Source: Escherichia phage vB_EcoS-885R8
Direction: 5' to 3' (one strand)
Sequence record: ON470602
Length of the DNA stretch: 22,017 bases
Below are positions 4,670 through 7,168 of the stretch, piece by piece; within the stretch, counting starts at the first letter, position 1; each line of letters opens with the position of its first letter. The notes under the pieces were generated by a model that saw only the letters and a list, made by a program, of their open reading frames with translations, ran no database searches and was not told where the DNA came from. The position numbers and the translations under genes were made by a program.

Positions 4670-7168
4670 CTACATTTTCTCCTGAAAAACATGATTTGAC
4701 ATCCCACGGGATTTATCTGCATAGTCACGTTCAAGTTGCAGACGCTGATTGTTATATTCACGTTCAATCCGCAGTAATTCCTGCTGGCGTTGCTGATTTT
4801 TATCGCCAACCCCATAACCAGCAATCTGAATATCATACCCCTGTTGACGATTATCAATCGAAGCCTGCAATAAATCACGCCATGCAGATATTTCGGCGGA
4901 TTCCTTGATTAGCCTGTTATTTTTTTCAATCGCAACATTTTTCTCCATCAACGCGGTTATTTCTTCCCGGTGTAAGAGAAGCGATTTCTGATCCTGGGTT
5001 AATTTCGATGACGGTCGTGACTCCAGGTCGGCAATCTGCTGACGCCACTTAACCAGTTCCTGTTCAGAGGAACTTAATTTAACGGTTAATTCAGTTTGTG
5101 AACTTAGTAACGCATTCTGTTGATTCAGATGATCAATCATTCGTTGGGCAGCATCATCCGAATAACCTTTCGCCTTTGGTTGCTTTGGATCTTTATAACG
5201 CTCATTTATTTGAGCGATAAAATTATTATATTCTTCCTTTGAATACTGACTCTTTAGCTTTTCCAGTTTTGCAAGTTCACTAGCTCTCTGCTGCTCCCGG
5301 GTCTGATATTGTTTTGAAAAGGCATCTGCTCTCTGTCTGAGTTCAATTCCTTCCTGTTGTCGCTTGTTGTAATCGTTTATTGATGAATTTAGGACGTCCT
5401 GAGCAATTTTTTCTGCTTGAAGTACGCCCAATTGCTGCTTTAATCGTGCCAGCCTTTTATTTTGAGCTCCGCCATCTCCAATGCCACCTAACCCGAAAAC
5501 TCCGGGTCGGGTATTTTTTTCTATTTCATCAATTTGACGGAGAACATCTGAGATTTTTTGATCAAGGGAGGCCTCACGGCCAATGTCCAGCATGGAATCC
5601 CATGCCCATTTTGCGGAGTCTGCGACAGCTTTCCATGCAGTCTCAAGATAACCAAGATTTTCTTTAATCTGGTTGGTGCGCTGGATCATTGAGGATGAGT
5701 ATGCTTCTGTCGCAATGCGGGCGGCCTCCTGCTGGTTCCCTTCATCCTGTAGCGCCTTAATCTGGTTATAAGTCGCAATTGTCAGAAAATGGTACTGATC
5801 ATTAAGTTTTGATATGGCACTGACAGGATCCTTTGCAATTTCATTGAAGTCATTAACCAGTTGTTCGGTTGATATTCCTGTTACTTCGCTCGTTTTTACT
5901 ATCGCTGTCGTCACTTGCTCCAGCGAACTGCTCGCTACCTTTCCCGAACGCACAAGCTGGTTTAATACTGCCGCCGCAGCGCCAGTTGTCGAATCAGCCG
6001 CATTCCCGGCACGTTGAGCTATATCGGCCAATTGCCCGCTGGTTGTCCCCAACTGATTTCCGGTAAGAATAAGAGATTTATTAAATTCGTCCTGCTCCTG
6101 AGAGCCTTTATAGTAAGCCAGCCCTAAGACGCCAACGGCTGCTGCGGCCAGGGTAAAAGGATTAATTAATCCCAGCACATAAGAACCAACACCTTTGATC
6201 GCCGGGCCAATCCCACCGAACATATCTTTTAGCTGGCCGCCCTGCTGCATTAACACCATAAAAGGCGACTGACCAGTGGACAACCCAACAACAATATCCG
6301 TCATTTGTGCAGGCAACATGCGCATAGCAAAAGCCGTTTGTTTTGCCGACATTCCGGTTTTGCTTAATTGAGATTGAGTAACCTCAAGCTCACTCCGCAT
6401 AGCACGAAGTTTTCCAGAAAGTTCCTCATACATTTCAGGAGAGAGCATCCCCTTAGCTTTTGCTTCATTGAGCTGTTTCTGTTGTTCTACCAGACGATTA
6501 AAAGCAGTTCCGACAGGGTCAAGTTGAGCAATCAGACGTTGCAAAGCAGCAACCTGTTCATCATGCGCTTTTGCTGCTTCTCGCTCTGCCTGAGCCTCTC
6601 CGGTAAGCTCTCGCCGTGTTTCCTGTATTTTTCGGCTATAATTCTCAAACTGAGAACCATTTATTTTCCCGGATGCAAACGCAGCATTAAGTTCATCCTG
6701 CTGTTGTTCAAGATTTCTTAGCGCCGCAGCCAGAGGGTCGATCTTGTCCAGCATTCTTTGAAAGGCCTGAGCCTGCGCTTCCTGCTGGGCGGCAGCAAGT
6801 TTTCCGGCCTTCTCGGCTTCTCTCTGCGCTTGCGCAACCCCGCTCAATTCCTCTGTGGTTTCATTAAGTTTACGGACAAGAAATTCATATTCTTCTTTAT
6901 CAATAAGCCCTTTATCGAAAAATTTCTTTAATTCAGAATAGCGTCGACCGACAGTATCAATTGCGGCACCAACTGGATCAATAGCTGCTTTTAATTTTGC
7001 GAGCGCGTTCTTCTCATCTTCTGTTGCCTTAGTCACTTTCCCTGCGCTATTTGCAGCAGTTTCCCCGGCCTGCGTCATTTTGACTAATGAGGAGGTCAGA
7101 TTGTCAGCATTATTTTTTGCTCCAGTGCTATCAATAATTATTGCGAGACGCGAGGTTTGCTCTGCCAT
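4670..7168 (-). CDS. tail tape measure protein, N-terminal 832 codons, ending at an in-frame amber codon
   Basis: 832-aa ORF with coiled-coil and tandem repeats near the N-terminus, a hydrophobic/Gly-rich central segment ([18 protein letters not shown]...), and position between the tail chaperones and M-like gene; GGAG 9 nt upstream of the ATG. Confidence 0.85.

Follow-up and report, generated by a model that had tools for sequence, protein, structure and literature searches.

Does the phage tail tape measure gene of Escherichia phage vB_EcoS-885R8 (sequence record ON470602) still encode a working protein, or has a single stop codon taken the tail away from the prophage that carries it? The gene lies on the minus strand of the stretch of 22,017 nucleotides analyzed here, which we refer to as the window. 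At the point in question, this strand reads ...GAG AAA ATG TAG GCT CTG AAT..., with the TAG at window 4672..4670. An earlier note on this DNA had described an 832-codon ORF which ends at this amber codon and a frame which stays open for another 244 codons, and our re-translation of 7168..3935 (−) agrees with it, yielding 832 codons, one stop, 244 codons, and a terminal stop, which is a TAA at 3937..3935 (−). In random sequence, the chance of finding 244 open codons straight after a stop is approximately 8e-6. There is no run of N within window positions 3194-13200, where the identity to a complete genome is 99.99%.

The two sides of the TAG carry domains of the same protein family. The Pfam scan placed TMP_2 (PF06791) at aa 267-471 (window 5756-6370), with an E value of 6.9e-82 and full coverage of the profile, and TMP_4 at aa 671-748 (window 4925-5158), both of which are upstream of the TAG. 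Tape_meas_lam_C (PF09718) was found downstream of it, at aa 858-932 (window 4373-4597), with an E value of 2.4e-27 when the distal part was scanned alone. In a BLASTP comparison, the repaired protein of 1077 aa was colinear with residues 57-850 of lambda gpH (28% identity, E value of 7e-79), and its distal 244 residues alone matched gpH 627-850 (E value of 6e-22). The proposal that the part downstream of the TAG is homologous to the distal region of gpH is supported by the latter match, and the colinear alignment together with the domains on both sides bears out the view that a single tape measure gene, about 1077 codons long, has been split by one nonsense codon. On the basis of the stop, the long open frame behind it, and the distal Pfam and gpH matches, the interruption of one gene is real, and the amber codon in the tape measure frame is confirmed as it was first described.

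The protein belongs to the same family as lambda gpH: TMP_2 and Tape_meas_lam_C are present in both, and the two are colinear. In the annotation of an identical locus, the tape measure gene is located between a G/T-like chaperone pair and the M, L, K, I, and J genes, so that the order of the tail genes (G/T chaperones, H, M, L, K, I, J) is common to lambda and to the Rac element, as which the prophage is identified below. However, the Rac protein (1077 aa) is longer than lambda gpH (853 aa), with about 210 extra residues at its N terminus, and the head module of the Rac element is P22-coat-like, unlike that of lambda. The features that define a gpH-type gene, namely TMP_2, Tape_meas_lam_C, colinearity with gpH, and a position between G/GT and M-L-K-I-J, are all present, except that the frame is interrupted, and the gene is therefore filed as a pseudogene of the gpH-type family. 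The features of the locus are collected in Table 1.

Table 1. Features at the interrupted tape measure locus, in window coordinates
Feature	Position	Strand	Basis and remarks
Tape measure (gpH-type) gene, whole	3935..7168	−	1077 codons plus TAA; pseudogene here; translation, BLASTP against lambda gpH
832-codon N-terminal ORF, predicted truncated product	4673..7168	−	Pfam scan; recorded as URC09652.1, Escherichia phage vB_EcoS-885R8
Amber TAG, codon 833	4670..4672	−	Alignment with intact relatives, allele counts
Substitution private to the window, Ala761Ser (gene nt 2281, T against G in five compared relatives)	4888	−	Base-by-base comparison
Distal 244 codons cut off by the TAG	3938..4669	−	Pfam Tape_meas_lam_C; alignment to lambda gpH 627-850
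189-codon ORF, starting at the first in-frame ATG past the TAG (4504)	3935..4504	−	ORF list
Residues 1045-1069, aligned with lambda gpH 818-842	3962..4036	−	BLASTP alignment columns
gpM-like tail tip gene, intact	3604..3942	−	8-base overlap with the tape measure end; identical to WP_000024051.1 of relatives
Tail assembly chaperone pair upstream of the tape measure gene	7332..7999	−	Frame analysis, annotation

The complete genome NZ_CP026723.1 (strain 266917_2) matches window 3194-22017 at 99.98-99.99%, and in it the gene is part of a prophage of about 47 kb adjoining ttcA. The early genes of this prophage are intR, xisR, ralR, recT, recE, kilR, racR, ydaS, ydaT, ydaU, and ydaV, and it also carries the iteAS defence pair, a lysis cassette, trkG, a head module of the P22-coat type, and a lambda-type tail module; trkG (19943-21418) and ydaY lie in the window itself. 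The prophage had been called Rac-like, and, judged by the ttcA site and the Rac gene set of NZ_CP026723.1, the element is a full-length Rac prophage. The Rac prophage of K-12 occupies the same ttcA site and has intR, xisR, ralR, recET, kilR, racR, ydaSTUV, trkG, and ydaY in common with it. In K-12, deletion has removed the head and tail genes of Rac, and ydaY is a remnant. In contrast, the copy described here keeps the full morphogenesis module, and its predicted tail defect comes from a point mutation. An older inactivating lesion, which would make the amber codon a second hit, was sought by comparing 266917_2 with LH85-a, the closest intact relative. In 266917_2, ydaU is frameshifted, whereas it is intact in LH85-a, and both strains have remnants of ynaK and of the tail-fibre assembly gene. 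Beyond the part represented in the window, positions 118000-150000 of NZ_CP026723.1 hold the iteA/iteS anti-phage pair, ralR, a tRNA-Thr, and a tRNA-Gly.

The codon that preceded the TAG was determined by alignment to intact Rac-like tape measure genes, as the earlier note had proposed. The ancestral codon 833 is CAG (Gln), which is present in the three intact relatives aligned, and the change is a C-to-T transition at window 4672 (gene nt 2497). The gene of LH85-a (WP_016231723.1) is identical to that of the window at 3232 of 3234 nt. One of the two differences is the amber site (nt 2497, C in LH85-a and T in the window), and the other is nt 2281 (G in LH85-a and T in the window), the site of the private Ala761Ser substitution 216 nt upstream of the amber codon. 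LH85-a thus has both CAG and Ala761, and its neighbouring M, L, and I proteins are identical to those of the window; the other morphogenesis proteins also have the same protein accessions in this nearest intact relative.

The two alleles were counted with 55-mers centred on the variable base, which forced the 28-base word of megablast across that base. Among 5426 complete genomes of E. coli, the TAG allele was found in 33 and the CAG allele in 673. The 673 genomes, with their uninterrupted ORF at this place, rule out two genuinely separate genes in related prophages, which would have spoken against a single split gene. The haplotype of the window is shared by 32 of the 33 TAG genomes, with an identity of 99.6% to the 22-kb window where aligned. 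The TAG carriers 28Eco12, 266917_2, and NMBU_W05E18 belong to ST38 of phylogroup D and to three different serotypes (PMC6963479, PMC7311804), and one further carrier bears just "ST38" as its name. In 525 contigs, the truncated product of 832 aa is recorded in exactly the ST38-type form. Based on the shared haplotype and the few published sequence types, we infer that the mutation probably had a single origin in the ancestor of ST38, or of part of it, and was inherited vertically. The T allele could serve as a lineage marker.

What the truncation may mean for the tail can be considered by comparison with lambda, in which tail assembly begins at the tip complex and gpH amber mutants make no tails; an amber codon in H is the textbook route to a tail-defective lambda which still makes heads. 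In the lambda structure, the tape measure is a trimer and the C terminus of gpH is located in the tail tip, where a three-helix coiled coil made of residues 818-842 sits in the lumen, on the gpI trimer (PMC10721106). We propose that codon 833 of a full-length Rac prophage at ttcA was changed from CAG to TAG by one C-to-T transition, which would have happened once and then been passed on with the ST38 chromosome. Without a host suppressor, translation would end at codon 833. The 832-residue product would retain the TMP_2 and TMP_4 regions, whereas the final 245 residues would be missing, and with them both the Tape_meas_lam_C domain and the C-terminal helix by which the trimer of lambda is anchored in the tip. 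Because the tip-anchoring helix is lost by truncation, a tail defect is expected: tail initiation on the tip complex should fail, and tailless DNA-filled heads would be the best possible outcome. The prophage is therefore likely to be unable to build tails, and its tape measure gene would be a pseudogene, the prophage being at the onset of decay. The lesion differs from the Ham mutants of lambda in that the amber codon arose naturally and became fixed in a wild clone, whose host does not have the tested suppressor. A search of the literature on the inducibility of full-length Rac prophages returned nothing relevant. For this explanation as a whole, that is, an inherited nonsense mutation and a tail-defective Rac prophage in early decay, we estimate a probability of about 0.88.

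It is also conceivable that the pseudogene is leaky, an explanation which overlaps with the preferred one. If tRNA-Gln decoded UAG as a near-cognate codon, it would place the ancestral residue at this position and give a low level of the wild-type full-length protein, and since the tape measure of lambda is a trimer (PMC10721106), three copies per tail would suffice, so that a small number of infectious particles might still arise. The remaining tail genes are identical at the protein level to those of intact relatives, which is compatible with such residual function. However, the truncated protein would be present in excess, and it retains the region aligned with the chaperone-interacting part of gpH, so it could compete with the rare full-length chains. 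Moreover, the presence of CAG in 673 genomes gives no sign that the TAG is maintained at this site. We consider leaky readthrough unlikely.

The single-origin part of our explanation is challenged by strain EC2 (NZ_CP058571.1; the locus lies at 1532-5542 of the extracted stretch), in which the identical TAG at codon 833 is found on a different tape measure haplotype and in a host lineage unrelated to ST38. EC2 is the only complete genome with the TAG on that haplotype. Over 2647 nt, its gene has 42 mismatches to that of the window. The SNPs flanking the T lie 10 nt before and 26 nt after it, so that the shared sequence around it spans at most 35 nt, and the host flank of EC2 (zntB-dbpA-ttcA) differs from that of an ST38 strain at 66 of 3440 positions (1.9%). 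EC2 thus shows that this change is able to arise on more than one background, which counts against the single-origin claim. If neither coincidence nor an assembly error accounts for the recurrence, codon 833 could be a mutational hotspot, or the loss of the Rac tail by truncation there could have been selected. If selection were at work, it could, for example, keep a prophage from which the host profits (recET, the iteAS defence, trkG) and prevent it from producing infectious particles. The tape measure gene contains 122 sites at which a transition creates a stop, so that a second independent change at the same site would be expected at about 1 in 120 for each additional nonsense lineage. A Dcm hotspot for C-to-T changes was rejected, since the sequence context is ATGCAGGCT and not CCWGG. 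In EC2, an IS1 element lies about 150 nt downstream of the TAG, with a 9-bp overlap of the flanks, and the assembly shows other frameshifted genes. The recurrence may reflect chance, a hotspot, or a faulty EC2 assembly, and a hotspot or selected truncation at codon 833 appears improbable to us as a general explanation.

The annotation produced by ORF callers suggests another possibility, namely that the tape measure has become split into two functional genes, one for the 832-aa protein and one for a 189-aa protein restarted at ATG 4504. Both of the CDS are named as tail length tape-measure protein H, the 189-codon ORF thus counting as a second "tape-measure protein H". However, a restart at 4504 sacrifices 55 residues, among them 30 at the start of the 75-residue match to Tape_meas_lam_C, and lambda gpH is colinear across the break. 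The split state is also derived and rare (33 versus 673 genomes). Length setting needs one continuous tape measure chain from the tip to the upper end of the tail, as is known from gpH deletion studies. Two functional genes are therefore highly doubtful, and the 189-codon ORF was rejected as an independent gene in view of the 673 genomes with one continuous ORF.

An amber suppressor of the supE or supF type in the host would allow readthrough and a functional phage, as in a laboratory sus mutant. This hypothesis is attractive in that supE (a tRNA-Gln with the anticodon CUA) would restore the wild-type protein after precisely this kind of change, from CAG to TAG, and a nonsense codon in an essential late gene, which is what marks a sus or amber phage, is indeed present. 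The corresponding tRNA with a CUA anticodon was not found among the tRNAs checked. ARAGORN detected no tRNA in the window, and the prophage as a whole has just two, Thr(tgt) and Gly(tcc), neither of which carries a CUA anticodon. The metT-glnX operon of 266917_2 was located by walking along the chromosome, and the four Gln tRNA anticodons were read as ctg, ctg, ttg, and ttg, which is the wild type. No suppressor form of glnV or glnX, the two genes checked for such alleles, is therefore present in this one ST38 carrier. Of the supE/supF-type alleles for which the earlier note suggested that the host be checked, the supE part has thus been covered. The supE allele itself was searched with a 55-mer centred on the glnV anticodon, a search which was its own positive control. 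The 55-mer matched 158 genomes. Those listed, 60 in number, are laboratory strains derived from K-12, with sizes of 4.5-4.8 Mb (C600, DH5alpha, DH1, J53, and the like), and no TAG carrier is among these 60. Strong amber suppressors impose a cost and are not known as a trait of natural clones of E. coli. Suppression in the host is thus very improbable.

A base-call or assembly error, with CAG as the true codon in the isolate, was suggested by the quality of the record. The window contains four runs of N, at 928-937 (10 bases), 1564-1573 (10 bases), 2914-2947 (34 bases), and 3184-3193 (10 bases), and is therefore a scaffolded draft rather than a finished sequence; it also has the private substitution near the TAG. 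However, about 1.5 kb separate the TAG from the closest N run, and the 10 kb around the TAG are 99.99% identical to a complete genome. The same T occurs in four sister GenBank prophage records and in 33 independently assembled complete genomes, which come from different laboratories and platforms. Together with the product known from 525 contigs, these 33 genomes rule out a base-call error, to which we give almost no weight. Among the three options put forward at the outset, the tail-defective prophage is thus favoured, the sequencing error has been dismissed, and the amber suppressor is unsupported in the tRNAs checked. The least credible alternative is that the late genes use TAG as a glutamine codon, which some crAss-like and Lak phages do: although the TAG stands in place of a Gln codon, the 22-kb module contains no second in-frame TAG, three of its genes (G-like, T-like, and tail terminator) genuinely end at TAG, neither the window nor the prophage has a suppressor tRNA, and the host, E. 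coli, uses the standard code, so that reassignment, which would show as many in-frame TAG codons and no use of TAG as a stop, was rejected by the stop-codon usage of the module.

The lesion is already flagged in public annotation and is a case of ordinary prophage decay. PGAP lists C4R22_RS00845 in NZ_CP026723.1, which has the identical sequence, as a pseudogene ("phage tail tape measure protein, internal stop"). ON470581, ON470585, ON470587, and ON470595 contain the same TAG, and in these records the halves are annotated as two CDS. The PGAP pseudogene and these split CDS pairs describe the same lesion, with no difference of substance. The four GenBank "phage" records come from a survey of carbapenemase-producing E. 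coli, and the vB_EcoS-885R8 record is likewise a PHASTER "intact" prophage prediction from a SPAdes assembly of a carbapenemase-producing clinical isolate (bioRxiv 10.1101/2022.06.29.498070). What this record holds is a prophage fragment without integrase and early genes and with a broken tail gene. This calls for caution in prophage prediction, as the prophage was called "intact" despite its broken tape measure gene, the halves of which were annotated as two genes. Beyond this, the locus may offer a clean example of early decay, in which one point mutation would disable an otherwise complete 47-kb Rac prophage in the globally spread ST38. The finding has no bearing on open questions of tail assembly or genetic-code use and is mostly a matter of bookkeeping.

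The draft nature of the window is also visible beyond the end of the tape measure gene. Here, the first N run interrupts the K gene (C40 peptidase), at about 546-1289. A piece of 1.6 kb lies between N runs at window 1574-3183, and none of the complete genomes compared has it at this place. Encoded on it are the C terminus of a second gpH, of the true lambda type (PLALNNVMSEQKKTWAAEDQLRGNWMAGLKSGW...), then an M-like gene, and then the first 596 nt of an L-like gene which is about 90% identical to the Rac L gene; the piece splits the latter. Most likely, it belongs to another lambdoid prophage of the same genome and was misplaced by the scaffolder via the shared L sequence.

On the upstream side, ydaY is the G-like gene of the chaperone pair (7999..7640, −), and an ORF in the −1 frame, open over 7679..7334 (−), overlaps its end. 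A slippery heptamer, A AAA AAG, is situated at 7652..7646 (−), two codons before the ydaY stop; the lambda-type slippery site GGGAAAG was not found at the right place upstream of the tape measure gene. This arrangement, as read from the frames, fits the conserved G/GT programmed frameshift. In public annotation, the second chaperone part appears as a separate hypothetical protein of 201 bp. The record ON032529.1, which carries the label of a Salmonella phage (SPF_0923), is 98.7% identical to 8.1 kb of the Rac head-tail module, and its tape measure gene is intact.
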